Positions 1 to 40,804 of a stretch of 40,804 nucleotides of DNA are shown one piece after another. A program made the position numbers and the translations under genes. The first letter of the stretch is position 1, and each line of letters opens with the position of its first letter. This stretch comes from Escherichia phage mEp234: the sequence record PV340539. The stretch is one strand, 5' to 3'. The notes under the pieces were generated by a model, which was given only the letters and a program-made list of their open reading frames with translations, did no database searches and was not told the origin of the DNA.

Positions 1-177
1 TTCGTAATCGTGAAAGAGGAAGGTAGGTTGTTTATCTGTGTCTGTCATTGTCTAGCATTGTCCACTGTAGTTAATTAACTGTCTGTTATAACTCGAAAAA
101 CAACCATTTTTTCACCTGAGTATGTCTACTAACGTCAAATATAGTTGTTTACTGTGCGCTGTTGTCCATGTGATATT

Positions 178-224
178 GTGTACCAGATGTGTACCAAACC
201 ATTATTTCTGAGCGTACCAAATAT
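178..224 (+). repeat. Cluster of three GTACCA(A/G) direct repeats just upstream of int; putative integrase arm-type binding sites (attL-side arm)
   Basis: 'tgtgtaccag', 'tgtgtaccaaacc', 'gcgtaccaaata' within 50 bp; same motif recurs at 40727-40749. Confidence 0.4.
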
Positions 225-229
225 TATTT

Positions 230-1408
230 ATGGCTATAAGCGACACAAAACTGCGTACTATTTATGGTAAACCATATTCGGGCCCACAAGAAGTGGCTGA
301 TGCCGATGGCCTCAGCGTACGAATTTCACCGAAGGGGGTCATCCAGTTCCAGTACCGCTATCGCTGGCATGGCAAGCCTAATCGACTTGGGCTTGGTCGA
401 TACCCATCCCTGTCTTTGAAGGATGCCAGACAGATCACTGCTGACTTGCGAAAGCTCTATTTCTCAGGAACGGATCCACGCACTTATTTTGAAGAGAAGG
501 TGGAGAACTCCATGACGGTCGCCCAGTGTCTCGACTACTGGTTCGACAATTACGTCTCTACAACTCTCAGAGAAAAGACCCAGGCACTTTACCGATCAAC
601 GGTTATGAAGCGCATGCATGACGCCTTCCCTAATCGACCGGCATCTTCTATCACGGTTAAGCAATGGGTTGACCTGCTTACCGAAGAAGAAAAAGATAAT
701 CCACGCCGAGCAAGGCAGGTGCTAAGTCAACTAAGATCAGCAATTAGTTGGTGCATGCGGCGTCAGTTGATAGATAGTTGCGCAATTATGAGCATCCAGC
801 CAAGGGACTTCGGCTCCCGCGCTGAGGTAGGGGATCGGGTACTGTCGTATCACGAACTGGCTAAGATTTGGCTTGCTATTGAAAGAAGCCGTGCGTCTAC
901 GTCAAATAAGCTCCTTCATCAGATGCTTATGCTGTGGGGGGCGAGGCTCTCAGAGCTTAGGCTGGCAACAAAGACAGAATTTGACCTGCTGGACAACGTA
1001 TGGACCGTACCGAAAGAGCATAGCAAGATGGGTAATGTTATCCGCCGTCCAATCTTCGAACAAATTAAGCCTTTTCTCGAAAAGGCCATGACAACGTACA
1101 ATGATGTTCTTTTCCCTGGAGAAGACATAAACAAACCGATCAGCATCGCTGCAGCCAACCGATTCGTAAACAGAATAAGGGGAGGGATGGATCTAGGTTA
1201 CTGGCGAACACATGATTTCAGAAGAACGCTTGTTACACGTCTGTCCGAGATGAATGTCGAGCCTCATGTTACTGAGCGAATGCTCGGTCATGAACTTGGC
1301 GGGATAATGTCCGTATACAATAAACACGACTGGATAGAGGCTCAGCGCAAAGCGTATGAGCTTCACGCTGATAAATTGTTCTGGCACATCAGGAGCATTT
1401 CTGATTAA
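230..1408 (+). CDS. int: Tyrosine site-specific integrase, P4-like with N-terminal arm-binding (DUF4102-type) domain
   Basis: 392 aa; N-terminus '...GLSVRISPKGVIQFQYRYRWHGKPNRLGLGRYPSLSLKDAR', C-terminal 'HDFRRT...RMLGHE...Y' catalytic signature. Confidence 0.93.
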   Translation: MAISDTKLRTIYGKPYSGPQEVADADGLSVRISPKGVIQFQYRYRWHGKPNRLGLGRYPSLSLKDARQITADLRKLYFSGTDPRTYFEEKVENSMTVAQCLDYWFDNYVSTTLREKTQALYRSTVMKRMHDAFPNRPASSITVKQWVDLLTEEEKDNPRRARQVLSQLRSAISWCMRRQLIDSCAIMSIQPRDFGSRAEVGDRVLSYHELAKIWLAIERSRASTSNKLLHQMLMLWGARLSELRLATKTEFDLLDNVWTVPKEHSKMGNVIRRPIFEQIKPFLEKAMTTYNDVLFPGEDINKPISIAAANRFVNRIRGGMDLGYWRTHDFRRTLVTRLSEMNVEPHVTERMLGHELGGIMSVYNKHDWIEAQRKAYELHADKLFWHIRSISD

Positions 1409-1580
1409 CGCCACCGTTAAGAATCCACCCTTCAACAGCTTCACGAAGGTATGATTTGGGGTGGGTTCTGACTGGCTTCGGAAATCCGTGCCGTTTGGTA
1501 TAGTTCCAGATTGTCTGACGTGATGAAACACCGAGCTTGTTCATCACTTCTTTCTCAGGAATCAGGCTGGTATCGGTCAT
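1389..1580 (-). CDS. AlpA/excisionase-family small DNA-binding protein (putative Xis or regulator)
   Basis: 63 aa, HTH-like '...LGVSSRQTIWNYTKRHGFPKPV...'; convergent with int, 20-nt 3' overlap. Confidence 0.75.
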   Translation of the reverse strand: MTDTSLIPEKEVMNKLGVSSRQTIWNYTKRHGFPKPVRTHPKSYLREAVEGWILNGGVNQKCS

Positions 1581-1659
1581 CTTAATTCTCCAGGCAAAAA
1601 TAAACCGCCATATAGCGGCTCTATCAGATATGTACAGGCCTCATCGAGTGTGAGGCGGG

Positions 1660-2004
1660 TTAGTCCTTGCGTAGCTCACTGATTCTTCTGTAAGTCTCTG
1701 GTGCTTTGTTCCCGTACGTCTTCATTTCAGACTTCAACAGAGCAACGAGGGGATCCCATTCGTTGAGGATGCCTTTGAATGCCGGAACGCGCTTTGCAAC
1801 CTTGTCGAATGAATCTCTGATTTCTGGAATCTGCTCGACAAGTGCAACGCATCGTCTGAAATCGGCTGCGTCATGAGGAGCGCCGAAGTGATGACCATAG
1901 ATATTCTTTTTCAGGCCACATGCGATTGAGGCAAGAGTTGCGCTACTGATGCCGACATCGCCAGTCGATAGCCATTTCAAAACCTTCATAGCCAAATCTG
2001 ACAT
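1660..2004 (-). CDS. Hypothetical phage protein (distal end of the leftward early operon)
   Basis: 114-aa ORF with GGAG RBS upstream of ATG; no family recognised. Confidence 0.55.
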   Translation of the reverse strand: MSDLAMKVLKWLSTGDVGISSATLASIACGLKKNIYGHHFGAPHDAADFRRCVALVEQIPEIRDSFDKVAKRVPAFKGILNEWDPLVALLKSEMKTYGNKAPETYRRISELRKD

Positions 2005-2026
2005 TTCTTGTCTCCATAAAACAAAA

Positions 2027-2050
2027 CTCGCCGTAGCGAGTTCAGATAAA
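2027..2050 (-). terminator. Putative intrinsic terminator (hairpin 'aactcgc-tacg-gcgagtt' + U-run on minus strand) between IS and 114-aa gene
   Basis: Stem-loop followed by TTTTGTTTT on minus strand. Confidence 0.3.
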
Positions 2051-2218
2051 AGAAATCCCCGCGAGTGCGAGGATTGTTATGTAATATTGGGTTTAATCAT
2101 CTATATGTTTTGTACAGAGAGGGCAAGTATCGTTTCCACCGTACTCGTGACCTGCTCCCCGTTGATTAGTACACCCCGATGTTAGTAATGTCTTCATAAG
2201 CCACATGAGGACATCCCC

Positions 2219-2482
2219 ATGAAGAAGCGTTTTTCCGACGAACAGATCATCAGTATTCTCCGCGAAGCCGAAGCTGGGGTACCCGCCCGTGAACTCTGCC
2301 GCAAGCATGCCATTTCCGATGCCACGTTTTACACCTGGCGTAAGAAGTATGGCGGTATGGAGGTGCCTGAAGTTAAGCGCCTGAAGTCGCTTGAGGAAGA
2401 GAACACCAGACTCAAGAAGCTGCTTGCCGAAGCCATGCTGGATAAAGAGGCGCTTCAGGTGGCTCTTGGGCGAAAGTACTGA
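2219..2482 (+). CDS. IS3-family transposase OrfA (HTH DNA-binding part)
   Basis: 87 aa '[46 protein letters not shown]...' typical IS3/IS407 OrfA with leucine zipper. Confidence 0.9.
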
Positions 2483-2505
2483 CGACAGACCAGAAGCGGG
2501 AAGCC

Positions 2506-3339
2506 GTGATGTTGATGTGTGATGCGACCGGTCTGTCGCAACGTCGTGCCTGCAGGCTTACAGGTTTATCCCTGTCGACCTGCCGCTATGAGGCTCACCG
2601 TCCGGCTGCTGATGCGCATTTATCAGGGCGCATCACTGAGCTGGCACTGGAGCGCAGGCGTTTTGGCTACCGTCGTATTTGGCAGTTGCTGCGCCGTGAA
2701 GGGCTTCATGTTAATCATAAGCGCGTGTACCGGCTTTATCACCTCAGTGGCCTGGGCGTAAAACGCAGAAGACGTCGTAAAGGGCTGGCAACAGAACGTC
2801 TGCCGCTGCTCCGTCCGGCGGCGCCCAATCTGACCTGGTCGATGGATTTCGTCATGGACGCACTTTCCACCGGTCGCAGGATCAAGTGTCTTACCTGCGT
2901 CGATGATTTCACAAAGGAATGCCTGACGGTCACTGTTGCCTTTGGGATTTCAGGCGTTCAGGTCACGCGTATTCTGGACAGCATTGCACTGTTTCGAGGC
3001 TATCCGGCGACGATAAGAACTGACCAGGGGCCGGAGTTCACTTGCCGTGCACTGGATCAATGGGCCTTTGAGCATGGTGTTGAGTTGCGCTTAATCCAGC
3101 CGGGCAAGCCAACGCAGAACGGATTTATTGAGAGCTTTAACGGACGATTTCGCGATGAATGTTTGAATGAGCACTGGTTCAGCGATATCGTTCATGCCAG
3201 GAAAATTATTAATGACTGGCGGCAGGATTATAACGAATGCCGCCCGCACTCCACGCTGAATTATCAGACACCGTCTGAATTTGCAGCGGGCTGGAGAAAG
3301 GGTCATTCTGAGAATGAAGATTCCGACGTTACTAACTGA
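2506..3339 (+). CDS. IS3-family transposase OrfB (DDE catalytic domain); probably expressed as OrfAB fusion by -1 frameshift in 2446-2482
   Basis: 277 aa with '...[54 protein letters not shown]...'; frame -1 relative to orfA, open from 2446. Confidence 0.9.
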
Positions 3340-3368
3340 GTGTTGTATCTAATCGTGGGGGCAGGTCA

Positions 3369-3513
3369 CAACGGCGCTGTAGTTTGTCCATTCTTTCTTT
3401 TTTGTCTGGCGATCGTAATACTGAACGCCAGCACGGATGTTGAATCCGATATTTTCCCCGGCCTGAAACTCTCTTGCGGGCTTGTTTAGTCTTACAGTAA
3501 TCGAATGTGCCAT
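3369..3513 (-). pseudogene. 5' fragment (~48 codons) of a gene translationally coupled to erf, truncated by the IS element; weakly SSB/OB-fold-like
   Basis: ATG overlaps erf stop (TAATG); 'MAHSITVRLNKPAREFQAGENIGFNIRAGVQYYDRQTKKKEWTNYSAVV' then runs into the IS inverted repeat; no continuation beyond the IS. Confidence 0.45.
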
Positions 3514-4118
3514 TAAGCAGCCGCTCCTTCTAATTCGTCTCGTCTGATGTTGTAAACGTCCTGCGCTTTGTGCTGCTCCGGTGTTCCTTCGAGCATCTTC
3601 CACGCTTTGGCGAACGCCTGTTTAAGCTCTTCCACGGTGTTTTTTTGCATTGCTGCGTCAGTGAATGCTTTTAGAACCTGTTCAGGTGTAGGTGATGGTT
3701 TTGATTGCTTTGCTGCTGCGTTCTGCTGATGTTTATGTTCGTCGGTATCTGCATCTTTCGCATCATCAATGCCGAACAAACCATTAAGGCAATACTTGCG
3801 CGCATAAGAGCTTGTAGCTCCAGTAACTTGTGCAGAATCCATTCCTTTCTTGCTTTCTTCCTCTCGTGCAAGAGCAGTTGCCGTATGACTGTTTTCGCCA
3901 TCGGTAATAGTTGCCGTGGCTTTCACGTAATACCGATCACCAATCAACACAACTTCATCGCTGATTGATAAAAACAGGCCATTCAGTAACGGCTTAACGC
4001 CTTCAAGAATGTCTTCGCAGCTTCTGTATTTATATTTACCGAATGAGTTGTACTGATTCTTTGGCGCGTTCAGATTCTCCTGAATAGCTGCCAGTCTTGC
4101 GTAAAATTCTTTGCTCAT
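3513..4118 (-). CDS. erf: Erf-family ssDNA annealing recombinase (P22 Erf-like)
   Basis: 'MSKEFYARLAAIQENLNAPKNQYNSFGKYKYRSCEDILEGVKPLL...' recalled as matching P22 Erf; likely start is the internal ATG at 4118 (track ORF 3513..4148). Confidence 0.85.
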   Translation of the reverse strand: MSKEFYARLAAIQENLNAPKNQYNSFGKYKYRSCEDILEGVKPLLNGLFLSISDEVVLIGDRYYVKATATITDGENSHTATALAREEESKKGMDSAQVTGATSSYARKYCLNGLFGIDDAKDADTDEHKHQQNAAAKQSKPSPTPEQVLKAFTDAAMQKNTVEELKQAFAKAWKMLEGTPEQHKAQDVYNIRRDELEGAAA

Positions 4119-4128
4119 ATGATTGTTC

Positions 4129-4299
4129 TCAGAATGGACACGGCCCAAGGAAATAACGCTGATTTAATACTTCAGTCTTTGCCGCATTTAAAAATACGCG
4201 AACACCTTCACGATCTCCCTTCTGGCGATACATTAACGCCTGCTGCGTGTACATGCGTCTCTGTAACTTGCTCTCCTTCACTGTGGTTGCAAGTGACAT
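4129..4299 (-). CDS. Small ORF (56 aa) between kil-like and erf; possible Arf-like accessory gene. A 56-aa ORF in another frame (4208..4378) overlaps it, so only one is likely real
   Basis: Strong RBS GAAGGAGATATTCATG; 'MSLATTVKESKLQRRMYTQQALMYRQKGDREGVRVFLNAAKTEVLNQRYFLGPCPF'; below the ORF-track size cutoff. Confidence 0.3.
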   Translation of the reverse strand: MSLATTVKESKLQRRMYTQQALMYRQKGDREGVRVFLNAAKTEVLNQRYFLGPCPF

Positions 4300-4374
4300 G
4301 AATATCTCCTTCGTTACCGATTAATTCTTTCATCTGACGAATGAATTCTTCGTCTGACCAGTTATCTGTAAAAC

Positions 4375-4527
4375 TCATTTCCTGCGATACAACGGAAGGT
4401 TGATAGCTGATTTCATCGCTTTATTTGCTTCAAACCACATTTTGGAATCACCAATAAATCTGGCTATTACTGCTTTGTTTTGTGCAGCACGAAGCATCTG
4501 ATGATTTATGGCTATTTCATTGCGCAT
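4375..4527 (-). CDS. Kil-like small protein (50 aa), putative host cell-division inhibitor
   Basis: 'MRNEIAINHQMLRAAQNKAVIARFIGDSKMWFEANKAMKSAINLPLYRRK'; '...IA(R/T)FIGD..KM...' resembles lambdoid Kil; sits between cIII and erf as in P22/lambda. Confidence 0.4.
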   Translation of the reverse strand: MRNEIAINHQMLRAAQNKAVIARFIGDSKMWFEANKAMKSAINLPLYRRK

Positions 4528-4643
4528 AATAAGACCTCAACTCTTTTCCATCCGTCACGTAATTTACGGGTGATTCGTTCAAGTAAAGATTCATTTAGTT
4601 GGAAGGCACCCATGCGAGCGCCTCCCGCGATTGCGTAAATCAT
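4512..4643 (-). CDS. cIII: cIII-like FtsH inhibitor (43 aa)
   Basis: 'MIYAIAGGARMGAFQLNESLLERITRKLRDGWKRVEVLLCAMK'; 'YAIAG' and 'ESLLERITRKLRDGWKR' match the lambda CIII core as recalled. Confidence 0.75.
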   Translation of the reverse strand: MIYAIAGGARMGAFQLNESLLERITRKLRDGWKRVEVLLCAMK

Positions 4644-4667
4644 GGGTGGTTCCTTATGTTGGTTTTA

Positions 4668-5636
4668 TTAGTAGGTTATTTTTGTTGCGAATACTTCGCC
4701 TTTTACGATGGCTGTTATGATATTTTTAGCAACATCTTCTGATGCACCAACCTTGATAAGGTCAGCAAGTATTTTGTTATTTACTTCTTTCCGGTGAGCT
4801 TTATCCTTTGCTCTACGCTCTTCTTCGTCCTTGATTCTTTTTTCTTCTGCTATTCTGGCTTGCTCTTTTGCTTCAGCCTCGCGCCGGATTCGTTCTGCCT
4901 CCTCCTGTGCTTTTCGGCGTTCTGCTTCAATTGCCACCTGCTTTTCTCTTTCAGCTCGTTCTGCTGCCTCTTTTGCTTCGCGCTGTGCTCGTTGCTCGGC
5001 TTCAATGCGTTCACGCTCTGCACGTTCCGCTGCGGCCTTAGCTTCTGCTTCTCGCCTTGCTGCTGCTTCAATTTCGGCTTTTGCCTTTGCTTCGGCTTCA
5101 GCTCTGGCTTTCTCTTCAGCTTCTCTTTTTAAGCGTTCTTCATGCTCTCGCTTTTCCTGCTCCGCTTTGAGTCTTGCCTCTTCTCTTTGGCGGTCAAATT
5201 CGCGATCCATCAAAATCGCTATTTCATGGTCAGACTCAATTTGCTTTGCGAGAGCTTCAGCTGCTGCCTTAGCTTCTTCTTCGGCTTTAATCCGTGCCTG
5301 CTCCTCCTCATAATCAGTAAGAGGCTGACGCGCCTTGGCTTTCAGCTCATCAAGTCGATCACGCACTGTCTTGCGGTTGGCATCAATTAGCTTTGGAATT
5401 TCCTTCAGTTCAGCAACAAGGTCTTTTCCAAGACCATCGAGATATGTTTTCGTCTGCGCAACTTTATACGCCAGAGAAGCGATCTCCTTTCTGCCCTTTG
5501 CCGTTGTGATATCAGGCACAAAGGACATAACTTCACGTTCAACCTTTTGGAGAATTTCTTCAATCTGGTCGGCAGACTGAAATACAGTCATTGCATTTGC
5601 TTTTTCAATAACAACTAAATCTGTTACTTCACTCAT
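4668..5636 (-). CDS. Early-operon protein with long E/A/K/R-rich coiled-coil central region; function unknown
   Basis: RBS GGAGGATATATG; 322 aa from MSEVTDLVV; central ~200 aa of '(A/E)EAKA...RREAEA' repeats; spurious low-complexity plus-strand ORFs overlap. Confidence 0.7.
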   Translation of the reverse strand: MSEVTDLVVIEKANAMTVFQSADQIEEILQKVEREVMSFVPDITTAKGRKEIASLAYKVAQTKTYLDGLGKDLVAELKEIPKLIDANRKTVRDRLDELKAKARQPLTDYEEEQARIKAEEEAKAAAEALAKQIESDHEIAILMDREFDRQREEARLKAEQEKREHEERLKREAEEKARAEAEAKAKAEIEAAARREAEAKAAAERAERERIEAEQRAQREAKEAAERAEREKQVAIEAERRKAQEEAERIRREAEAKEQARIAEEKRIKDEEERRAKDKAHRKEVNNKILADLIKVGASEDVAKNIITAIVKGEVFATKITY

Positions 5637-5794
5637 ATATCCTCCGTCAAAAAAATTGCCCTCACACTGGAGGGCAAAGAAGATTTCCAATAATCAGAAC
5701 AAGTCGGCTCCTGTTTAGTTACGAGCGACATTGCTCCGTGTATTCACTCGTTGGAATGAATACACAGTGCAGTGTTTATTCTGTTATTTATGCC

Positions 5795-5821
5795 AAAAAT
5801 AAAGGCCGCCATCAGGCAGCC
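5795..5821 (-). terminator. Putative intrinsic terminator at 3' end of the 83-aa gene (minus strand)
   Basis: Hairpin 'ggctgcc-tgat-ggcggcc' followed by UUUAUUUUU on minus strand. Confidence 0.35.
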
Positions 5822-6063
5822 TTGTTGTAAATGTTGCAGGTATCAAGTAAGTAATTAGATGGAGCGCCATAAATTATGAATTCATCGTTTGTCGGGTCCA
5901 TCTCCATCTCTTGGCCTATTGCCATTCTTGCGTCAGTGTCATCAGCGGCGAAGCATAAAACAGCCCACGCACCCATTGTTTTAAAAAGAACTGCAATTGG
6001 CTGTGGTTTTACTGAATTTGCGTTAGCGCGAAAATCACAAATCGCACTTTCATGAAATTCCAT
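5812..6063 (-). CDS. Hypothetical small protein (83 aa) downstream of N
   Basis: ORF in the position of lambdoid ral/sieB-type accessory genes; no family recognised. Confidence 0.45.
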   Translation of the reverse strand: MEFHESAICDFRANANSVKPQPIAVLFKTMGAWAVLCFAADDTDARMAIGQEMEMDPTNDEFIIYGAPSNYLLDTCNIYNKAA

Positions 6064-6121
6064 ATATCACCTCAAATAAGTGGTTTGCTGCCTAATTTTA
6101 TTTTCTGGCGACCAACACAAG

Positions 6122-6505
6122 TCACCTTGCTGTCAGTTGTTTTGATTTCCTGTAGCCTGCCGCGTAAAGAGCTACATTTGGAAGACATACACCAGTTTCT
6201 GGTTGCCTATGCCCAAACTCATTCGCGTACACAATGGCCGCTCTCTCCAGATTGCGTCTGTATTCTTTCTGTTGCCAGATCACGTCCTGTGCCATGAACT
6301 TAATTGGCTTAGCGTCTTCTATGCGCTCAGGCGTTTCGTGAGTACCTTTAGCCTGAATCTGCGCTCTGCTTAGAGTAGGGCGGTGTAATACTTCTGAACT
6401 TATTGCTTCTTCGCGGGCCAGTACGCCGTTAGCTAATGCCTTTGCCTTTAAACGCTCACGACGACGAGAACGTGAATTGCCTTTGAACTGAGTTCTGCGT
6501 GTCAT
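6122..6505 (-). CDS. N: N-type transcription antiterminator, P22 gene-24-like
   Basis: Arg-rich N-terminus 'MTRRTQFKGNSRSRRRERLKAKA'; C-terminus '...LPNVALYAAGYRKSKQLTAR' recalled as matching P22 gp24; first gene after pL/nutL. Confidence 0.8.
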   Translation of the reverse strand: MTRRTQFKGNSRSRRRERLKAKALANGVLAREEAISSEVLHRPTLSRAQIQAKGTHETPERIEDAKPIKFMAQDVIWQQKEYRRNLERAAIVYANEFGHRQPETGVCLPNVALYAAGYRKSKQLTAR

Positions 6506-6670
6506 ATAGACCTCCTGATGAACTTTGGTGGTGTGGTAGGTGGGAGACCCATTTCGACCTGTTTCGGCCTACTTCAATTCGGCAATAGTCCCGCAGGCCT
6601 CGCCGCTTTACGTGCGACATATTCCCGTCCATGAACCCTTCACCACACCCCAAAGTTCACTTTGGTTATT

Positions 6671-6685
6671 GCGCTTTGTCAGCGC
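6671..6685 (-). promoter_or_regulatory. nutL boxB hairpin, P22 type (GCGCUGACAAAGCGC on transcript)
   Basis: Forward 'gcgctttgtcagcgc'; perfect 5-bp stem with GACAA-containing loop in the N leader. Confidence 0.6.
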
Positions 6686-6753
6686 CGTAGATTCATCTCT
6701 GAATCGTTGTATATTCACCGCCCTGGTGAGTAGTGCGTCCTGCTGATGTGTTT

Positions 6754-6817
6754 AGTATCACCGCCAGTGGTATTTATGTCAACACCGCCAGAGATAATTT
6801 ATCACCGCAGATGGTTA
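6754..6817 (-). promoter_or_regulatory. pL promoter with operators oL1-oL2-oL3, lambda type
   Basis: oL1 'TATCACCGCCAGTGGTA' (6756-6772), oL2 'CAACACCGCCAGAGATA', oL3 'TATCACCGCAGATGGTTA'; -35 TTGACA / -10 GATACT on minus strand. Confidence 0.9.
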
Positions 6818-6965
6818 TCTGTATGTTTTTTATATAGATTTATTTTTTTGCAGGGGTGTGTGGCTTGGGAGGTGATCGAGAGATCTGAATTGCGATGTTT
6901 AGTGAGTTGTATCTATTAATTTTCAAATAAATACAATTGGTTATGTGTTTTGGGGCGAACGTGAG

Positions 6966-6993
6966 GCAAAGAAAACCCGGCGCGGTGGCCGGG
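6966..6993 (-). terminator. t-imm-like intrinsic terminator ending the cI-side leftward transcript
   Basis: Hairpin 'cccggccaccgcgccggg' + UUUUCUUUG on minus strand, directly after the acidic-protein stop; lambda-like flank. Confidence 0.7.
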
Positions 6994-7000
6994 TTGGAGA

Positions 7001-7426
7001 TTATTTTCTAGATGATGTTGGGGACCAAGGTAACGTTATAGTATCTAACACTGTGTTTTTGAACATATTTTCAAAAACTGTTTTTGTACATACATATACA
7101 TAATTTTCAAAAAACCAAGCATTTTCATTATAAAAATCCTCAGTTACTTCTTCATCGAGGTCACACTCAAATGTTAGTGTCAAGGTAGCCTCTGCCTTGA
7201 ACAATACATCCTCACCATCATCAAAATCTTTTTTATCGCGAGGGAAACCAGTTATCGATGGCTTAACTTCAATAAAGAGCCAATTTCCATCTTCATCTTT
7301 TTGAGGAACAACGTGATGCTCAGAAAATTTTAAGCTATATTTTCCGCCTTCAGAATTATCACTGTCGTCGATAAAAAGGGAAGAACCCTCGAGATCAAAT
7401 CCCTTAAAGCGAATTTTATCAAGCAT
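7001..7426 (-). CDS. Strongly acidic 141-aa protein of unknown function, third gene of the rex-slot cassette
   Basis: ATG overlaps hicB-like stop (TGATG); D/E- and aromatic-rich ('DDSDNSEGG', 'DKKDFDDGED', 'ECDLDEEVTEDFYNENAWFFENY'); track ORF 7001..7462 starts at a TTG, the ATG at 7426 is preferred. Confidence 0.6.
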   Translation of the reverse strand: MLDKIRFKGFDLEGSSLFIDDSDNSEGGKYSLKFSEHHVVPQKDEDGNWLFIEVKPSITGFPRDKKDFDDGEDVLFKAEATLTLTFECDLDEEVTEDFYNENAWFFENYVYVCTKTVFENMFKNTVLDTITLPWSPTSSRK

Positions 7427-7899
7427 CAATGTGGCACTCCGTTGTCTACTGAAACTTCCCAATAGGTCTCTTCTGTACGTCTACGGGATGAGAAGAAAGT
7501 AACTTCTCTAACATCCCTCGGTTTTTCAAAGTGGTAGTGAACCTCTTTTTTCCCATTAACTGACTCACTGACAGCCTGTTTTACATAATCGTTTAAAGTC
7601 ATATTCTTAGCTTTAGCAGCTAAATATGCTTTTTTATGCAGGGATTCACCTATCCGGATGTTAAACGAACCACTCATTGTCTTATCTGGAGATTTTCCTA
7701 TCTCTTCACAAGTGGAGAGGTAATCGTCCACGGCCTCCTCAAAGGCTGCACGGAGTTCTGCAACCGTTGCACCCTCATAAGTGACGAGATCATTTATACA
7801 TTCGAGTTTTCCATGCATCACCCCATCTTCAAATGAAATGCTGGAGCTACCATAGTAACCTTTGTATTTCATCAAGTTATTCATGATCATCAATCTCAT
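7426..7899 (-). CDS. HicB-like antitoxin-family protein with ~45-aa C-terminal extension (start ambiguous: 7899/7890/7884/7872)
   Basis: '...MKYKGYYGSSSISFEDGVMHGKLECINDLVTYEGATVAELRAAFEEAVDDYLSTCEEIGKSPDKTMSGSFNIRIGESLHKKAYLAAKAKNMTLNDYVKQAV' matches the HicB fold/RHH pattern; overlaps hicA-like 3' end. Confidence 0.7.
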   Translation of the reverse strand: MRLMIMNNLMKYKGYYGSSSISFEDGVMHGKLECINDLVTYEGATVAELRAAFEEAVDDYLSTCEEIGKSPDKTMSGSFNIRIGESLHKKAYLAAKAKNMTLNDYVKQAVSESVNGKKEVHYHFEKPRDVREVTFFSSRRRTEETYWEVSVDNGVPH

Positions 7900-8131
7900 C
7901 TAACAGCTGTTTAACTTCTTCCAAGACGTACCTTTTGAGGGTGTTTTCAGGATGAGGCTCATGAAAAATGACCAATCTATCAACACGTTGGTTGTAAAAT
8001 TTACGGCCAGAACCTCGTTTAGCATTCAAAAGCTTGAAGCCATACTGGTTCATGAGAGTAACGAACTCATCCCAAGTAAAATTTTTGGGTAAGCCGTCTA
8101 ACTTTGACTTTAGCTTTTCCTTTCTTCCCAC
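7877..8131 (-). CDS. HicA-like (YcfA-fold) toxin-family protein, GTG start
   Basis: 84 aa; '...GFKLLNAKRGSGRKFYNQRVDRLVIFHEPHPENTLKRYVLEEVKQLL' resembles the HicA motif but has GSGR where GS(N/H)H is expected; toxin-first order as in hicAB. Confidence 0.6.
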   Translation of the reverse strand: MGRKEKLKSKLDGLPKNFTWDEFVTLMNQYGFKLLNAKRGSGRKFYNQRVDRLVIFHEPHPENTLKRYVLEEVKQLLDEIDDHE

Positions 8132-8157
8132 GAAGGATACATCCTCTGTTAAAGGTA

Positions 8158-8180: not shown

Positions 8181-8291
8181 GCTATGCTATCTATAGACAA
8201 AATGTTTCATTGTTATATCAGAAGATACCCGATCTGTTTCACCTTCAACTACTATAATTTGTTATAAGCTATCAACCGGTGGAACTGCGAA

Positions 8292-33164: not shown

Positions 33165-33211
33165 CAAACTGTCACTGATACTATCGTGTAGTACACAGCA
33201 AGGAGAACGAT

Positions 33212-33436
33212 ATGTATACAGTTGGGTTTGGTTGGATCTTCGTCGGTATTTTTATTGGGTTAATTCTCTGGTTTTTCATCAACCGCGCCAGCGTCAGAGC
33301 GAACAGGCAGGTTGAATTACTTGAGTCTATCGACCAGAAATTATCAAAAATAGTAGATCCAAACTTCGAGGCAAATAACAAAGACCAGTCGAAAGAAAAC
33401 TACCTTGAAGAAGCAAGGAAAAAAGCTGGGCTTTGA
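33212..33436 (+). CDS. Small single-pass membrane protein (74 aa), moron between K and I; paralog of 27859..28047
   Basis: RBS AAGGAGA; N-terminal TM helix; shared RAN(E/R)QVE motif. Confidence 0.7.
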   Translation: MYTVGFGWIFVGIFIGLILWFFINRASVRANRQVELLESIDQKLSKIVDPNFEANNKDQSKENYLEEARKKAGL

Positions 33437-33452
33437 GAGCGTAAATTAACAA

Positions 33453-33474
33453 ACCACCTACGGGTGGTTTTTTT
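33453..33474 (+). terminator. Hairpin + U7 element after the second membrane-protein moron
   Basis: 'accacc-tacg-ggtggt' + TTTTTTT before ATGGGGG. Confidence 0.6.
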
Positions 33475-33485
33475 ATGGGGGCAGC

Positions 33486-34094
33486 ATGCAAGAGGTAATG
33501 ACAAGAATTGAGCTAAGTGGCGTGCTAGCTAAGACATATGGAAGGGTTCATCACCGTCTGGTTCGCACTACTGCTGAAGCCATTAATGCACTCGCGAAAA
33601 CCATCAATGGATTCGAGAAATTCTTAAACACAAGCAAAGCCCGAGGGCTGACGTATGCCGTTTATAGAGATAAAAAGAATATTGGCGTTGATGATCTCGG
33701 CTTTCCCGTCACCGGCGAAGTGATCCGGATTGTCCCTGTAGTAATAGGGAGTAAAAAGGCTGGTCTTTTGCAGACGATCTTGGGGGCCGTGCTTATTACT
33801 GCTGCTGTGTTGACTGGAGCCGGCGGTATTGGCGCTGCTTTCGCTGCTGGTGGATTGACGGGGTTTGCTGCTGCCACTGGTGCCTCGTTGGTCCTCGGTG
33901 GGGTTATTCAGCTGCTTTCACCGCAGCCATCAGGCATAGCCAGTAAACAAAGCGCAGATAACCGTGCATCGTATGCGTTTGGCGGGGTAACCAACACTGC
34001 AGCGCAAGGCTACCCGGTGCCTCTGCTTTATGGTAAGCGTCGAATCGGCGGAGCGATTATTTCTGCCGGAATTTATGTCGAAGATCAGCAGTAG
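33486..34094 (+). CDS. I: Tail assembly protein I-like
   Basis: 202 aa with Gly/Ala-rich hydrophobic C-terminal half typical of lambda gpI. Confidence 0.8.
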   Translation: MQEVMTRIELSGVLAKTYGRVHHRLVRTTAEAINALAKTINGFEKFLNTSKARGLTYAVYRDKKNIGVDDLGFPVTGEVIRIVPVVIGSKKAGLLQTILGAVLITAAVLTGAGGIGAAFAAGGLTGFAAATGASLVLGGVIQLLSPQPSGIASKQSADNRASYAFGGVTNTAAQGYPVPLLYGKRRIGGAIISAGIYVEDQQ

Positions 34095-34113
34095 ATAACT
34101 AACCTTTTTTCTG

Positions 34114-34135
34114 GCCACCTTCGGGTGGCTTTTTT
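34114..34135 (+). terminator. Hairpin + U6 element upstream of J-like gene (third copy of the element)
   Basis: 'gccacc-ttcg-ggtggc' + TTTTTT before ATGGGCG. Confidence 0.5.
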
Positions 34136-34146
34136 ATGGGCGCAAT

Positions 34147-37100
34147 ATGGCTACAGATAAAGTGTTAAAAGGCCGCAAGGGCGGCAGCTCAAGTTCCCGA
34201 ACCCCTACCGAACAGCCTGATGATCTGCAATCTGTAGCGAAGGCAAAGATCCTCGTTGCGCTTGGGGAAGGGGAGTTTGCTGGACAGCTCACCGGGAAGG
34301 ATATCTACCTGGACGGAACAGCGCTGGAGAATGCTGACGGCTCCCAAAACTTCAGCGGGGTAACGTGGGAGTTTCGCGCGGGAACGCAGGCGCAAAAATA
34401 TATTCAGGGTATTCCCGGTACCGAAAACGAGATCAGCGTAGGAACTGAGGTATCAAGTGCCACAGCCTGGACGCGCACGTTTACCAATACGCAGCTTTCA
34501 GCAGTTCGCCTGCGTCTTAAATGGCCCTCGCTTTTCAAACAGGAAGACGACGGCGATCTGGTGGGTTACTCGGTCAATTATGCGATTGACCTGCAGACGG
34601 ACGGCGGCACATGGCAGACGGTACTCAATACCAGCGTGACCGGCAAAACGACGTCTGGTTATGAGCGCAGCCACCGTATCGATTTACCGCAGGCTGGCAG
34701 CACATGGACAATACGTCTGCGTAAGATTACCTCTGACGCCAACAGCGCGAAGATCGGCGACACGATGATGCTGCAGAGCTTCACCGAGGTGATTGATGCC
34801 AAACTGCGCTACCCGAACACCGCGCTGCTCTACGTCGAATTCGACTCAAGCCAGTTCAACGGCTCTATTCCTCAAATTTCATGCGAACCGCGCGGCCGCG
34901 TTATCCGCGTTCCAGATACCTACGACCCTGAAACCCGCACTTATAGCGGTACATGGACCGGTGCGTTTAAGTGGGCATGGACGGATAACCCTGCGTGGAT
35001 TTTTTACGACCTGGTTGTTTCTGACCGGTTTGGCCTCGGGCACCGTTTGACCGCTGCGAATATTGATAAATGGACTCTTTATCAGGTTGCTCAGTATTGT
35101 GATCAGATGGTACCAGACGGCAAAGGGGGCAACGGTACAGAACCACGCTATACCTGCAACGTGTACATTCAGGACCGGAACGACGCCTACACAGTCCTGC
35201 GTGATTTTGCCGCTATCTTCCGTGGCATGACCTACTGGGGCGGGGATCAGATTGTGGCCCTGGCTGACATGCCGCGCGATGTTGATTACAGCTATACGCG
35301 CGCTAACGTTGTTGGCGGTCGCTTCACCTATTCGAGCAGCACCACGAAAAGCCGCTACACCACAGCGCTGGTTTCATGGTCAGATCCGGGTAACGCTTAT
35401 GCCGACGCAATGGAGCCGGTATTTGAGCAGGCGCTGGTGGCGCGATACGGCTTCAATCAGCTGGAAATGACAGCCATCGGCTGCACCAGGCAGTCAGAGG
35501 CGAACCGAAAGGGGCGCTGGGGTATTCTCACCAACAACAAGGATCGCGTTGTTTCGTTTGATGTCGGGCTGGACGGAAACATTCCGCAGCCGGGCTACAT
35601 CATCGCCGTGGCAGACGAGCTGCTTTCCGGAAAGGTTATGGGCGGCCGCATCAGCGCCGTTAACGGTCGCGTTATCAAACTTGACCGCGTAGCTGATGCA
35701 GCACCAGGTGATCGCCTTATTCTCAACCTGCCTTCCGGAGCGTCGCAGAGCAGGACCATTCAGGCCGTGAACGGGGAATCAGTCACAGTCACCACGGCAT
35801 ACAGTGAGACGCCACAGGCCGAAGCTGTTTGGGTTGTTGAATCTGACGAGCTTTACGCGCAGCAGTATCGTGTTGTCAGCGTCTCCGACAACGGTGATGG
35901 CACTTTCTCAATCACCGGCGCATGGCACGACCCGGATAAATATGCCCGCATCGATACCGGAGCCATCATTGACCAGCGGCCGGTGAGCGTGATCCCGCCT
36001 GGTAACCAGTCGCCGCCTGCGAACATCGTGATCAGCTCGTTTTCCGTGGTGCAGCAAAATATCAGCGTCGAAACGATGCGCGTGAGCTGGGACCAGGCGC
36101 AGAACGCTATCGCCTATGAAGCGCAATGGCGCCGCAACGACGGGAACTGGGTTAACGTGCCGCGCACCTCCACCACGTCATTCGACGTCCCGGGGATTTA
36201 TGCCGGGCGCTACCTGGTGCGGGTGCGCGCAATCAATGCCGCAGAAATTTCATCCGGATGGGGCTATTCAGAAGAGAAAACGCTGACGGGTAAAGTGGGC
36301 AATCCACCGAAGCCGGTTGGCTTCATCGCTTCTGAAAATGTGGTTTTCGGCATCGAGCTGAACTGGGGATTCCCGGCGAATACCGACGACACGCTGAAGA
36401 CGGAAATTCAGTACAGCCTGACCGGAACCGAGGACGATGCGATGCTGCTGGCCGATGTGCCTTATCCGCAGCGCAAATATCAGCAGATGGGCCTCAAGGC
36501 TGGGCAGATTTTCTGGTACCGCGCTCAGCTGGTGGACCGCAGCGGCAACGAATCAGGGTACACAGAATGGGTGCGAGGACAGGCCAGCATCGATGTTTCC
36601 GACATCACAGATGTGATCCTGGAGGACATGAAAGGCTCCGATACGTTCAAAGACCTGATCGAGAACGCTGTGGACAGCAATGAAAAAATTGCTGGCATGG
36701 CTGACGAAATCAAAAACCATGCCGACGAACTCGAGCAGCAGGCGAAAGACATCCAGGAAAACGCTGACGGGCTGGCCCAGGCCGAAGTGAAGATCGACGA
36801 GATTTCTGTGTCGATGGATGGCATGACGGGAGGCGTGAAGAACTCGGCAATCGCGATTATCCAGAATGGGCTGGCGCAGGTTGTCAGTCGTCGTTCCCAG
36901 ACCGCGACAAACGCAGGGAACAGCGCCAGCATTGACCGTATCGACACGACCATAGCCGACACCAGCTCGGCGGTTGCTCGCGCGCTGGTGACGCTGGATG
37001 CTTCAGCTGGTGGGAATATCTCCAACTCTACCGATCTCACTGAAACTCTGGCCGATTTCACGCAGGCATCGGCGACAAAAATTAACACCCTGAATGTTAA

Positions 37101-37602
37101 ATCTGGCGAAAACAGTGCCGCGATAAATGTCAACGCACAGGCTATCGCAGATGTAAACGGTAACCTAAGTGCGATGTACAACATCAAGGTTGGTGTCTCC
37201 AGCAATGGACAGTATTACGCCGCGGGGATGGGTATCGGCGTGGAGAATACGCCATCCGGCATGCAGTCGCAGGTTATCTTCCTGGCTGATCGCTTCGCCG
37301 TCACCACGGCGGCCGGAAATAGCGTGGCTTTGCCGTTCGTGATCCAGAACGGGCAGACATTCATCCGGGCCAGTTTCATCCAGGACGGCACTATCAGCAA
37401 CGCAAAGATTGGTAATTTTATCCAGTCGAACAATTATGTTGCTGGTTCTGCTGGCTGGAAGCTTGATAAAGGGGGGACGTTTGAGAACTACGGTTCGACT
37501 GCTGGTGAGGGAGCCATGAAACTGACAAATCAGACGATCAGCGTCAAAGATGGCAGTAATGTTCTTAGGGTGCAGGTTGGCCGATTAACGGGAGTATTCT
37601 GA
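34147..37602 (+). CDS. J: Central tail fibre / host specificity protein J-like
   Basis: 1151 aa; conserved J-like N-terminal two-thirds with fibronectin-type region; divergent C-terminus. Confidence 0.9.
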   Translation: MATDKVLKGRKGGSSSSRTPTEQPDDLQSVAKAKILVALGEGEFAGQLTGKDIYLDGTALENADGSQNFSGVTWEFRAGTQAQKYIQGIPGTENEISVGTEVSSATAWTRTFTNTQLSAVRLRLKWPSLFKQEDDGDLVGYSVNYAIDLQTDGGTWQTVLNTSVTGKTTSGYERSHRIDLPQAGSTWTIRLRKITSDANSAKIGDTMMLQSFTEVIDAKLRYPNTALLYVEFDSSQFNGSIPQISCEPRGRVIRVPDTYDPETRTYSGTWTGAFKWAWTDNPAWIFYDLVVSDRFGLGHRLTAANIDKWTLYQVAQYCDQMVPDGKGGNGTEPRYTCNVYIQDRNDAYTVLRDFAAIFRGMTYWGGDQIVALADMPRDVDYSYTRANVVGGRFTYSSSTTKSRYTTALVSWSDPGNAYADAMEPVFEQALVARYGFNQLEMTAIGCTRQSEANRKGRWGILTNNKDRVVSFDVGLDGNIPQPGYIIAVADELLSGKVMGGRISAVNGRVIKLDRVADAAPGDRLILNLPSGASQSRTIQAVNGESVTVTTAYSETPQAEAVWVVESDELYAQQYRVVSVSDNGDGTFSITGAWHDPDKYARIDTGAIIDQRPVSVIPPGNQSPPANIVISSFSVVQQNISVETMRVSWDQAQNAIAYEAQWRRNDGNWVNVPRTSTTSFDVPGIYAGRYLVRVRAINAAEISSGWGYSEEKTLTGKVGNPPKPVGFIASENVVFGIELNWGFPANTDDTLKTEIQYSLTGTEDDAMLLADVPYPQRKYQQMGLKAGQIFWYRAQLVDRSGNESGYTEWVRGQASIDVSDITDVILEDMKGSDTFKDLIENAVDSNEKIAGMADEIKNHADELEQQAKDIQENADGLAQAEVKIDEISVSMDGMTGGVKNSAIAIIQNGLAQVVSRRSQTATNAGNSASIDRIDTTIADTSSAVARALVTLDASAGGNISNSTDLTETLADFTQASATKINTLNVKSGENSAAINVNAQAIADVNGNLSAMYNIKVGVSSNGQYYAAGMGIGVENTPSGMQSQVIFLADRFAVTTAAGNSVALPFVIQNGQTFIRASFIQDGTISNAKIGNFIQSNNYVAGSAGWKLDKGGTFENYGSTAGEGAMKLTNQTISVKDGSNVLRVQVGRLTGVF

Positions 37603-37603
37603 A

Positions 37604-37906
37604 ATGGCTTATGGAATACAGACCTGGGATGCTTCAGGAAAACCCAACAACTATGGCATCAAACCCGTTTCCGTCGTTGGGCGAATACAGCTGGCTGCCG
37701 GGCAAACCTCCGGCAGCTGGTCTTTTACGGTGCCCTCAGGAATGAAAGTTGGTTTTGTTCTTTCACTTGATGAAGGAGGTAACAGCGTAGGGCGGCGCAT
37801 TGTCGCGTCAGGGAGCACAATAACCGTAAGCGCTGCATCTTCTGTAGGTCTGGGTAATTATCCGGCCTCAAAGTGTGAAGTGGTCGTTTTCATGGAGAAA
37901 GCATAA
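37604..37906 (+). CDS. Hypothetical protein (100 aa) downstream of J
   Basis: ORF tightly coupled to J stop. Confidence 0.5.
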   Translation: MAYGIQTWDASGKPNNYGIKPVSVVGRIQLAAGQTSGSWSFTVPSGMKVGFVLSLDEGGNSVGRRIVASGSTITVSAASSVGLGNYPASKCEVVVFMEKA

Positions 37907-38544
37907 TGGCCGAATTTGGCGCGATGATATTAATGGACAACGGGAACCCATTTGTAACGCCCCAGTCAACGCCTTTTTGTCTTTACGGCAAGTACACTTT
38001 CAACTCCTCTGCTAATGGCAGTTCGCAGCAGGTTGCTCAGAATATTGCATTAAATGCTGACTACCCTGTGATGGTATTTATCAGGACCACAAATACCGCC
38101 CAGCCCACGCCAGTAATATCTTACCGGAACGGCGGAAATATATATGTCGCGGGGGTTAATCCCTATAACCAGAGCTTCACGTTAACCGCATATATTTTTG
38201 CCATATTTCCCCAGACGTTACCGAAATGGGGGATGGCCATCTGGGATTCGAGCGGGAAGCTGGTACTCACTAATGAGTCCCGCGTGCTGTCAGACTTGCA
38301 GACAATCGGAACGCCTGGAGCAAACGGCGGGATTAACATTGACCAGACGCTTGATGGTTCATGGGCAGTGGCTCCATCAAGGCTGGGGCAAGTGAACAGA
38401 AACGACGCTTACTCATCTTGTAGGTATTCAGGCACAAGTACAAGAATAAACGCCGGTACAGCCGCAAATACACCTGGCGGTGCTGGAGGGGTGATAAATA
38501 ATGGAATTATCCTGACAGCAATTAAAACAGACGCCTATGATTGA
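37906..38544 (+). CDS. Hypothetical protein (212 aa) downstream of J; shares a short 'WD(A/S)SGK' segment with the preceding ORF
   Basis: ATGA-coupled to the 100-aa ORF. Confidence 0.5.
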   Translation: MAEFGAMILMDNGNPFVTPQSTPFCLYGKYTFNSSANGSSQQVAQNIALNADYPVMVFIRTTNTAQPTPVISYRNGGNIYVAGVNPYNQSFTLTAYIFAIFPQTLPKWGMAIWDSSGKLVLTNESRVLSDLQTIGTPGANGGINIDQTLDGSWAVAPSRLGQVNRNDAYSSCRYSGTSTRINAGTAANTPGGAGGVINNGIILTAIKTDAYD

Positions 38545-38651
38545 TTGTTTTGAGCGATCAATAACAAATAATTTATCTATCTAATCAATTATATCCATCG
38601 ATTATGTATTGGTATCTTCGAAGCTACTGAATACCTCTGGATACTATCAAA

Positions 38652-38885
38652 ATGAAAAGGCTAATTATCTGCATAGCGGGCGCTTTAATGCTGTCTGGTT
38701 GCGCTGGTGTACTTGAGAAACAGAAACCGATTTGCAGCGGCACGGCATATATGGGTGGCCATGAGAATACCGTTATGATTTACGCCGTTCGAAAGCAAAA
38801 CAACCAGACGCAATACCGGGCCGGATATCCCTTTAACTGGCGCTGGGTAAGTGCGAACACATTCACAAGCACGACATGTAAATAA
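38652..38885 (+). CDS. Small lipoprotein (77 aa), Cor-like superinfection-exclusion candidate
   Basis: Signal peptide + lipobox 'LSGCAG'; AT-rich upstream region and downstream hairpin/U-run; typical position for lambdoid cor genes. Confidence 0.55.
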   Translation: MKRLIICIAGALMLSGCAGVLEKQKPICSGTAYMGGHENTVMIYAVRKQNNQTQYRAGYPFNWRWVSANTFTSTTCK

Positions 38886-38905
38886 CTCATGATTTTCAAT
38901 GCAAA

Positions 38906-38927
38906 CCTCGCCTCGGCGGGGTTTTTT
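38906..38927 (+). terminator. Putative intrinsic terminator after lipoprotein gene
   Basis: GC hairpin 'cctcgcctcggcgggg' + TTTTTT. Confidence 0.45.
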
Positions 38928-38943
38928 ATTGCCTGGAGAAAAT

Positions 38944-40212
38944 ATGCTTTATAACACTGGAACCATCGCCATTAACGGAAACAGCGCCACCGGCACGGGC
39001 ACGAACTGGACGGCAACCGCCAGCCAGGTTCGCGCTGGCCAGACGATTATCGTGATGTCTAACCCGGTGCAGCTGTTCCAGATTTCATCCGTGAACAGCG
39101 CCACGTCAATGACGGTTACGCCAGCTGCATCACCGGCGCTGAGCGGCCAGAAGTACGGCATTCTGGTATCAGACAATATCTCGGTTGATGGGCTGGCGCT
39201 GGCCATGTCGCAGCTTATCAAGGAGTATGACGAGAATATTGGTGCGTGGGAGACGTTCGCCACAACCTCAGCCAACCAGAACATTACCGTTACGATCAAT
39301 GGCACCAGTTTATCAATCCCGGCTCTTGGGAAATTACTGCAGAAGGGGAGCAACGGAGCTTTGCCGGTTAATCAAGGTGGTACCGGCGCAACGAATGCCG
39401 CAGACGCTCGCACAAACCTTGGTCTGGGAAGTGCGGCGACAAAAAACACAGGAGCGTCCTTCGGCGATGTAATGACAGTGGGGGCTTTTGGGCTGGGAAG
39501 CGTTGCGGACGGGTACTACTACGGTGCGCCAACGGGGTTTTACGGCAGCCCTCCGGATAACCCAAGCAGTGGCATTGGGGTAGCAACAATAAAGAGCGTT
39601 GTGGGTGGATATTCAACAGATTTATCCATGACCCTTGCATCCACAGCCCGCCTTTTTCTGAGAAATATCGGACCTGGTGGCGGCGGTCTATGGGCAGAAT
39701 TTTACAGCAACAGAAATACTACAACAGCTGCAGACGGAACCCTGAAAGTGGCATCCCCCATTGTTAAAATACTTCACGATGGTCGGCATGAAAACAATGA
39801 TGAATCTTATGGCTGCACAGTTACCAGGCTCGGGGTTGGTGAATATCTCATTGAAGGATGTACGGGGCTCAATTCTGATGCAGCCTGGGGTGGTATCGAT
39901 GGCGGCTTTGACATCCCCAAAGATCGAAACAGGCAACCACTGATATGGCTGGACTATGAGATCAACGCTGACGGTTCGGTGCTGGTAAAAACCTATCATC
40001 GTACCCATCCTGACGCTCCAGTTTTTGCACGTAACGAGCGGGACGGATACGCCAGTGGTGACCCGATTGATATTCCTGCCGACCAGTTCGTGTCAGTACG
40101 TGTAGAGATGCCACGCGACAGTATCTGGCACCAGAAACAGAAGGAGATGCGGGAAGTGATGGAGGACGCTGAGCGTGGGCGCCAGCAAAATCAGCAGAAT
40201 ACCCAGTCGTAA
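38944..40212 (+). CDS. Side tail fibre protein
   Basis: ~422 aa from 'MLYNTGTIAINGNSATGTGTNWTA...'; 'LPVNQGGTGATNAADARTNLGLGSAA' fibre motif; track ORF begins at 38899. Confidence 0.8.
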   Translation: MLYNTGTIAINGNSATGTGTNWTATASQVRAGQTIIVMSNPVQLFQISSVNSATSMTVTPAASPALSGQKYGILVSDNISVDGLALAMSQLIKEYDENIGAWETFATTSANQNITVTINGTSLSIPALGKLLQKGSNGALPVNQGGTGATNAADARTNLGLGSAATKNTGASFGDVMTVGAFGLGSVADGYYYGAPTGFYGSPPDNPSSGIGVATIKSVVGGYSTDLSMTLASTARLFLRNIGPGGGGLWAEFYSNRNTTTAADGTLKVASPIVKILHDGRHENNDESYGCTVTRLGVGEYLIEGCTGLNSDAAWGGIDGGFDIPKDRNRQPLIWLDYEINADGSVLVKTYHRTHPDAPVFARNERDGYASGDPIDIPADQFVSVRVEMPRDSIWHQKQKEMREVMEDAERGRQQNQQNTQS

Positions 40213-40726
40213 AAATTATAACTGCCGCAACCATGCCGTATGCAAGAGCATGATTGCGGCCGACTAGCGAACGTTCGATAGTGCGAGTATTGAATGATTT
40301 CAAGCCGTTACCGATTTTACTATGTTTTCAGTAGAACGCTTAGACAAAACTGAGGCGCACAAAGCTTTGCACTGGATTGCAAGACTTTGTTCTATTCGAT
40401 AGTTTAAGGTCGCTCACTCTACCTTTTCATCAAGCCAGTCCGCCCACCACAGCATCATTTCTCTGCGCTTAATGTAGCGGATGCCTCACTATCACATAGT
40501 GATGGTTCATTACTGCTTTGTAGAATGGATAGAGAACTGAGGATAAAAAGATATCCCAAAACCCCAAAATCTCATCTTTAGGATTTGCAGAAAGGGAGGC
40601 GTGAACAGATACCTGCGCATGAAGACGGAACTAGTCCAGATGTGATATTTGTGGTGATCACATACATCATCAACGATGCTCGTTATGGTGAGTTTGATGA
40701 CTACCCGCTGAAGTGAAAATAGTGTT

Positions 40727-40749
40727 GTGTACCAAATTGCGTACCAAAC
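40727..40749 (+). repeat. Two GTACCAAA direct repeats near the right end; putative integrase arm-type sites (attR-side arm)
   Basis: 'tgtgtaccaaatt' + 'gcgtaccaaacta', same orientation as the 178-224 cluster. Confidence 0.4.
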
Positions 40750-40804
40750 TAAAATCACAAATCATGAAACCCTTGTTCATGGCGGTTCTCAGGGGTATTG
40801 CGCG

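Follow-up and report, generated by a model that had tools for sequence, protein, structure and literature searches.

Does the 40,804-nucleotide stretch of Escherichia phage mEp234 deposited as PV340539 (hereafter the window, meaning the whole stretch analyzed) hold a new combination of phage modules, and what does the insertion sequence (IS) near its left end tell us about the history of its recombination genes? A first-pass annotation had described a mosaic of a P4-type integrase, Erf recombination, a P22-type N/nut system, lambda immunity, nin, Q and lysis genes, an HK97-type head and a lambda-like tail. We found a real mosaic when the window is set against lambda, P22 and HK97, but one that is already documented and ordinary for lambdoid phages. 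The only new thing relative to the described mEp234, and a small one, is the IS: its position matches, base for base, a joint that occurs in mEp234 alone; truncated genes flank it on both sides, and no target duplication is present.

When both halves of the window were compared by megablast with 50,697 phage records, the top match was Escherichia phage mEp234 (JQ182732.1 / NC_019715.1, 39,578 bp, Hendrixvirinae, Wanchaivirus), at 100% identity. Local alignment to NC_019715 gave three collinear blocks of 21,099, 16,336 and 2,145 bases, each 100.000% identical without a mismatch or a gap; together they account for all 39,578 bases of the record (Table 1), and the 95% threshold for the species Wanchaivirus mEp234 is exceeded genome-wide. 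The window is the mEp234 genome rotated, with its first base region at the 13-bp attachment (att) core and with 1,222 extra bases at 2148-3369, the 1,221-bp IS and one C, which fall between record positions 23242 and 23243. The first-pass annotation implied a new combination of modules and named collinearity with a single described phage as the result that would speak against it; since the match to mEp234 is complete, collinear and 100% identical, the IS aside, the combination is not new. That the window is an undescribed mosaic, a new mix of P4, P22, lambda and HK97 modules, is extremely improbable. Its rarity in nature would favor such a reading, as none of 5,426 complete E. coli genomes has more than 68% of window 3370-25000 together at one place, but the same combination is the deposited mEp234, for which the annotation notes of NC_019715 list the same module relationships gene by gene. 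The immunity region has moreover been in print since 2007 (Degnan et al., as cited in PMC8585504). The mosaic description is thus known: mEp234 has already been sequenced, annotated and classified.

The ends of the window tell in which form the phage was captured. Its first two bases are TT, where the phage record has CG before the att core; 582 complete E. coli genomes match its first 400 bases, starting at base 1, and have sbcB annotated at the matching place; and it ends two bases into a second core. Taken together, these features point to a prophage cut from a lysogen at sbcB. We therefore regard it as very probable that the window is the integrated form of the temperate lambdoid phage mEp234, cut from a lysogen chromosome at sbcB and carrying one IS1222/ISSen4-like element. 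The deposit (with its immunity region, EF120460.1) has the same bases, gene order and att core as the window and differs in not being in prophage order and in lacking the two host bases and the 1,222-base insert. The junction between phage and IS occurs in no complete E. coli genome of the collection, and a literature search for a resequencing of the mEp phage collection found nothing relevant.

The element has the features of the IS3 family, IS407 group: orfA and orfB (Pfam HTH_Tnp_1 in the former, rve and rve_3 in the latter), a programmed -1 frameshift, TG...CA ends and terminal inverted repeats. Its frameshift element matches Rfam IS1222_FSE with 156.6 bits, the sole match of the Rfam scan of the window. 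Copies annotated as "IS3-like element ISSen4 family" in 412 E. coli genomes are 100% identical to it; E. coli C, WG5 and C122 have about 20 such copies each. E. coli K-12 MG1655 is not known to carry ISSen4. From seven independent copies we defined the ends of the element and its usual target duplication: the canonical IS is 1,221 bp long with inverted repeats TGACCTGC...GCAGGTCA, and three of the seven copies have a 4-bp duplication (CAGG, CTTT and CATG). The flanks of the window copy are CTCG and CAAC. The insert is absent from the deposited mEp234, and neither JQ182732 nor NC_019715 has any note on an IS.

What the IS separates are remnants of two genes. To its left lies a lambda-type segment that ends in the last codons of ea8.5, and to its right the 5' part of a homologue of gp40, a protein type named SSB-1b in a 2025 survey (PMC12315714). 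This gene is reduced to 48 of 129 codons in both the window and the deposit. In HK97, HK022 and HK106, the gp40 sequence continues with a C, the very base that stands at 3369 and that the deposit lacks. In these three phages abc2 adjoins gp40; it is missing from the window. A 200-bp probe centered on the IS-less joint of the deposit matched 1,430 records of E. coli and 265 of phages. None of them reaches across the joint except mEp234 itself; the others end precisely there (probe 1-100 or 101-200).

Two other ideas about this joint were set aside. HK106 does not serve as the undeleted parent: only its right flank (gp40 to erf) is collinear with the window, and it gives no measure of how large the deletion was, because the left flank is absent there, save for a 35-nt stretch. 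Nor is gp28 of the deposit an in-frame fusion of gp40 and Ea8.5, as its 16 C-terminal codons read the ea8.5 DNA in a different frame. The 35-nt stretch itself, AAAAGAAATCCCCGCGAGTGCGAGGATTGTTAT (window 2045-2080; HK106 locus ~1043-1078), is kept in the window, lambda and HK106 with different flanks. It resembles a terminator-type hairpin that serves as a boundary for recombination.

How did the IS come to lie at this joint? Most likely, an IS inserted first and then gave rise to a deletion next to it, or two copies of the IS recombined with each other. The deletion event would have removed the DNA between the ea8.5 and gp40 remnants, abc2 included, and the IS-bearing form would be older than the IS-less deposited sequence. 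The reading that we favor, to which we give about an even chance, is that the IS-bearing sequence is the authentic earlier mEp234, and that an IS-associated deletion made the joint between the two remnants, taking out the anti-RecBCD gene abc2 as well as two thirds of the gene for SSB-1b. Several points weigh against it. The deposited mEp234 has no IS and its record is silent on one. Passing from the IS-bearing to the IS-less form requires the loss of the IS plus one nucleotide without microhomology, which is non-standard for the IS3 family. The agreement of the extra C with gp40 could be due to chance (1 in 4). Finally, neither form of the joint has an independent witness in other collections: the exact junction strings are absent from IMG/VR, the JGI metagenomes and the GTDB species representatives, and the junction-specific truncated open reading frame, in both start versions, is absent from the gene index.

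A rival account has the IS jump recently, by simple transposition, into a mEp234 that had none, perhaps while the phage grew on a host rich in ISSen4 (E. coli C, for instance); how the joint arose would then be an unrelated matter. The 100% identity of the IS to the many copies in E. coli C, WG5 and C122 and its absence from the deposited phage fit this account, but we consider it unlikely. A simple insertion in the IS407 group should leave a 4-bp duplication, and there is none of any length at this site, which coincides to the base with the mEp234-only joint (about 1 in 40,000 per site by chance). Besides, the insert consists of the IS plus one nucleotide, and that nucleotide restores the ancestral gp40 sequence. 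The two sequences could instead differ through an artefact of assembly or editing, with the IS either misplaced in the assembly of the window or removed or collapsed in the 2012 deposit. They are indeed otherwise identical to the base, and the difference between them is an exact block of IS plus one nucleotide with no biological scar. Yet a misassembly is not expected at a unique mosaic joint with intact IS ends, and a removal from the deposit, while possible, went without a word in the record; such an artefact seems to us distinctly improbable.

Table 1. Positions of alignment blocks, attachment sites, genes and regulatory sites in the window.
Feature	Window positions	Strand	Evidence or counterpart
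Alignment block	3-2147		mEp234 record 21098-23242
Alignment block	3370-19705		mEp234 record 23243-39578
Alignment block	19706-40804		mEp234 record 1-21099
attL: 2 host bases (TT, sbcB 3' end) and 13-bp att core CGTAATCGTGAAA	1-15	+	Core annotated in NC_019715 at 21098-21110
Tyrosine integrase with P4-like arm domain	230-1408	+	Pfam Arm-DNA-bind_3, Phage_integrase
AlpA/HTH_17-type excisionase candidate	1389-1580	-	Weak Pfam Phage_AlpA, HTH_17; record annotation agrees
Lambda-type segment ending in ea8.5 3' remnant (last 18 codons, 2093-2147)	2002-2147		96.6% to lambda 29283-29431 (also given as 29283-29428)
IS3-family IS (ISSen4/IS1222-like, 1,221 bp): orfA 2219-2482, frameshift element 2449-2566, orfB 2506-3339	2148-3368	+	
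gp40 homologue (SSB-1b), 5' remnant, 48/129 codons	3369-3513	-	tblastn 97.9% to HK97 gp40 codons 1-48; PHROG 44 single-strand DNA binding protein
erf, gp30, kil, cIII (recombination/early-left)	3513-4643	-	tblastn/blastn
gp33 (322 aa) and gp34 (83 aa), accessory, between cIII and N	4668-6063	-	PHROGs of unknown function only
N 6122-6505, nutL boxB 6671-6685, PL and OL1-3 6756-6816	6122-6816	-	tblastn, Pfam N_peptide, operator comparison
rex-slot cassette: gp36 7001-7426, hicB 7426-7884, hicA 7877-8131	7001-8131	-	Pfam HicA_toxin, HicB
cI 8495-9208 (-), OR3-OR1 9219-9282, cro 9309-9509 (+), nutR boxA 9517-9524, nutR boxB 9548-9562	8495-9562		Lambda-specificity core
cII, gp42, O initiator with iterons, P DnaB-type helicase	9648-12441	+	tblastn, PHROG "replication initiation O-like"
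ninA, B, E, X, F, G, H, I, Q, PR'/qut	12441-15806	+	tblastn; PR'/qut from record annotation
S, R, Rz, KilA-N protein, HNH endonuclease, gp61, cos end	16170-19656	+	tblastn/blastn
HK97-type head: terS, terL, portal, protease, major capsid, connectors	19706-26329	+	tblastn/blastn
HK97/HK022-type non-contractile tail, morons gp15, gp20, gp21, gp22, cor, side tail fibre	26389-40212	+	tblastn/blastn
attR core, first two bases CG, window end	40803-40804	+	Aligns to record 21098-21099

The remainder of the window was dissected by translating the 61 annotated mEp234 genes, searching them by tblastn against lambda, P22, HK97 and HK022, and mapping shared segments by blastn. Gene identities come directly from these comparisons, whereas the functions proposed for the modules are taken over from near-identical characterized homologues. 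The genes follow the lambdoid order (int-xis, rec, N, cI-cro-cII, O-P, nin, Q, lysis, head and tail), and no tRNA genes were found in the window. All the modules listed in the first-pass annotation are present according to the per-gene tblastn, the blastn map and Pfam, and the segment map, which located the junctions, supports its description of a lambdoid mosaic with sharp boundaries. Its source labels fared less well: the boxB hairpins are of P22 type as it said, but most of the modules that it ascribed to lambda and P22 are the HK97 or HK022 versions.

The architecture of the integrase has the arm domain expected of the P4 type (PF13356 Arm-DNA-bind_3, DUF4102, 8e-18; PF00589 Phage_integrase, 1e-16; a weak PF14659 Phage_int_SAM_3), but it is about as distant from P4 Int (26% identity, E 2e-13) as from lambda Int (24%, E 5e-11), and neither tblastn nor blastn gave a match in lambda, P22, HK97 or HK022. 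Recombination by this enzyme would take place between the 13-bp core and the sbcB 3' end. The integrase gene and the excisionase candidate are convergent, with 3' ends overlapping by 20 nt (1389-1408), unlike in lambda, HK97 and HK022, where int and xis are co-oriented.

In the early-left region, the recombinase was correctly called Erf (3513-4118; 100% identical to HK97 and 74.6% to P22). Next to it, gp30 is 100% identical to HK022, Kil 96% to HK97, and cIII 69-72% to lambda and P22. The two accessory genes that follow, gp33 and gp34, are absent from lambda, P22, HK97 and HK022 and have no Pfam or PADLOC match; they may be a moron or defense cargo. The N/nut module that had been labeled as P22-type keeps this character in its boxB hairpins and in the C terminus of N, but overall it is that of HK97. 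The N protein, which has the Pfam N_peptide family, is 100% identical to HK97 N, and window 6061-6991 has 99.0% DNA identity to HK97. The BLASTP match of N to P22 gp24 is limited to about the last 33 residues (67%; alignment given as residues 98-127); the N-terminal two thirds are unrelated, and there is no full-length homology taking in the arginine-rich motif, a region with a weak match to lambda N (E 0.012). Both boxB sequences fold as a 5-bp stem with the 5-nt GACAA loop of P22: that of nutL, GCGCTGACAAAGCGC, is identical to the P22 nutL boxB, and that of nutR, TCGCTGACAAAGCGA, has the same loop with a changed outer pair. An HK97-type N would antiterminate at nut sites with P22-like boxB. 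As for boxA, nutR has one, CGCTCTTT, and no canonical boxA (CGCTCTT) was seen between PL and the nutL boxB (6686-6760, minus strand), where the HK97 sequence is the same.

By its phenotype, mEp234 belongs to the immunity group of lambda (PMC3442831). The lambda-like cI, cro and operators of the first-pass annotation were confirmed: the cI protein is 99.2% identical to lambda, cro 98.5%, and five of the six operators (OL1-3, OR2 and OR3) are identical to those of lambda, while OR1 (9266-9282), TACCTCTAGCGGTGATA, has one G-to-A change that is also found in HK97. The specificity is thus that of lambda, but cI and cro are equally or more HK97-like (100% each). The lambda-specificity CI and Cro would act on these lambda-type OL and OR. 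DNA similarity to lambda is confined here to 6715-6995 (OL/PL to the end of rexB) and 8499-9523 (cI to past cro), which sets junctions at the rexB end and t-imm (~6991-6995), at the 3' end of cI (8444-8499) and just past cro (9523). The boundaries at t-imm and cI, and at cro and cII, are therefore real, as the first reading had it.

Between the first two of these junctions, the rex slot would hold a hicAB toxin-antitoxin pair: hicA (Pfam HicA_toxin, 1e-7) precedes hicB (Pfam HicB, 1e-18) with an overlap of 8 nt, and by gene arrangement and Pfam the predicted system is of type II. Directly downstream of hicB lies gp36 (141 aa), named "HicC" in PV340542, which has no Pfam family match and always accompanies hicAB in mEp234, HK106 and mEp506. 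The 1.5-kb cassette is absent from lambda, P22, HK97 and HK022 and identical in EF120460.1, the mEp234 immunity region, and in HK106 and mEp506; it is not new, having been deposited in 2007 as EF120460.1. A PADLOC search with gp33, gp34, gp36, HicA/B, gp21, gp22, Cor and gp27 gave no match.

Beyond cro, cII is 93% identical to HK97 and HK022, and the replication genes proved to be an iteron initiator and a DnaB helicase, as first described. O (10125-11015) is 67% identical to HK022 with a near-identical C-terminal part and contains two clusters of the 11-bp repeat TTGTCCAACGG (10499-10616), and P (11005-12441) has its counterpart in the DnaB-like helicase of HK022 (99.2% identity). O would bind these iterons within its own gene and work with the phage DnaB-type helicase. 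The lambda label of the nin, Q and lysis genes holds for NinB (98.6%), NinE (94.6%), NinG (98.0%), NinH (100%), NinI (97.3%), Q (99.0%), S (97.2%) and R (96.8%); NinF has 88.7% identity to lambda. It fails for Rz, which is 58% identical to lambda versus 95-97% to HK97 and HK022, and for ninX, which is of P22 type (42.6% to P22), and tblastn found neither ninC nor ninD in the nin region. Window 15101-19656 has 96.9% DNA identity to HK97 and HK022. It includes the HNH endonuclease (99% to HK97 gp74) and the KilA-N protein, whose PADLOC match is only marginal, and the end and start of the HK97 genome map to window 19656|19657. The lambda-type Q, at qut, would switch on the S/R/Rz lysis genes, the HK97-type head and the HK97/HK022 tail.

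The order HNH, terminase, portal, protease and capsid announced for an HK97-type head was found, with 98-100% identity to HK97 for the HNH, terS, terL, portal, protease and capsid proteins. Across the module, identity to the proteins gp74 and gp1-gp7 of HK97 is 91-100%, the genes follow the HK97 order, and there is no separate scaffold gene. At the DNA level, a single 14.4-kb blastn block has 98.1% identity to HK97. The head would be made with an HNH-assisted terminase and a protease, with no scaffold gene. The tail had been called lambda-like, and H, M, L, K, I and J do have 30-35% identity to lambda proteins, but the tail is that of HK97 and HK022. Its shaft is HK97-type (major tail to I, 97-100%) and its tip HK022-type (J C terminus, gp21, gp22 and Cor, 100%), and tblastn detected no lambda match for the tail tube and chaperone genes.

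Among the relatives of the window, HK106 (NC_019768) and mEp506 (PV340542) have its lambda-type immunity region, including an identical hicAB-gp36 cassette, and are 98-99% identical to it over most early and late regions. Their integrases differ from that of the window. At the place of the IS, HK106 has an intact gp40, abc2 and another ~2.5 kb of early-left genes, and it lacks the ea8.5 remnant apart from the shared terminator-like stretch. HK97 has in common with the window the head and most of the tail (98% DNA identity), N/nut, cI, cro, cII and Erf (93-100% protein identity), as well as Q, the lysis genes, KilA-N and HNH. It differs by its lambda-type int/xis, by gp48/gp49 in the rex slot and by another O/P pair; it has roi/RusA where the window has ninG/ninI, and its gp40 is intact and accompanied by abc2. 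HK022 shares P, the C terminus of O, the tail tip and erf to kil (98%), but has Nun for N, its own immunity and another tail shaft, and the IS that it carries is IS903, not one of the IS3 family. With lambda the window has in common the immunity specificity and ninB, E, G, H, I, Q, S and R (95-100% protein identity), yet only ~6 kb of it aligns with lambda at the DNA level, and lambda differs by Red/Gam, rexAB, its own N and boxB, its own O/P and another head. P22, finally, shares the nutL boxB, the end of N, Erf (75%) and ninE, F, G and Q (94-98%), whereas the window lacks the P22 immunity, head, tail and abc genes.

The mosaic as first described adds little; the IS at the point of truncation adds a modest correction. 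In Table 1 of PMC12315714, mEp234 serves as the prototype of a recombination module classed as "anti-RecBCD minus, SSB plus, SAP plus", and its anti-RecBCD-minus status would be explained by an IS-associated loss of abc2. The position of the IS suggests that an IS-associated deletion lies behind both the absent anti-RecBCD gene and the SSB-1b stub. If this is true, the prototype of the mEp234-type module would have arisen recently by deletion and its SSB would be broken, and the reference genome would be short of 1,222 bp. The GenBank reference may then not represent mEp234 as it is kept in lysogens.

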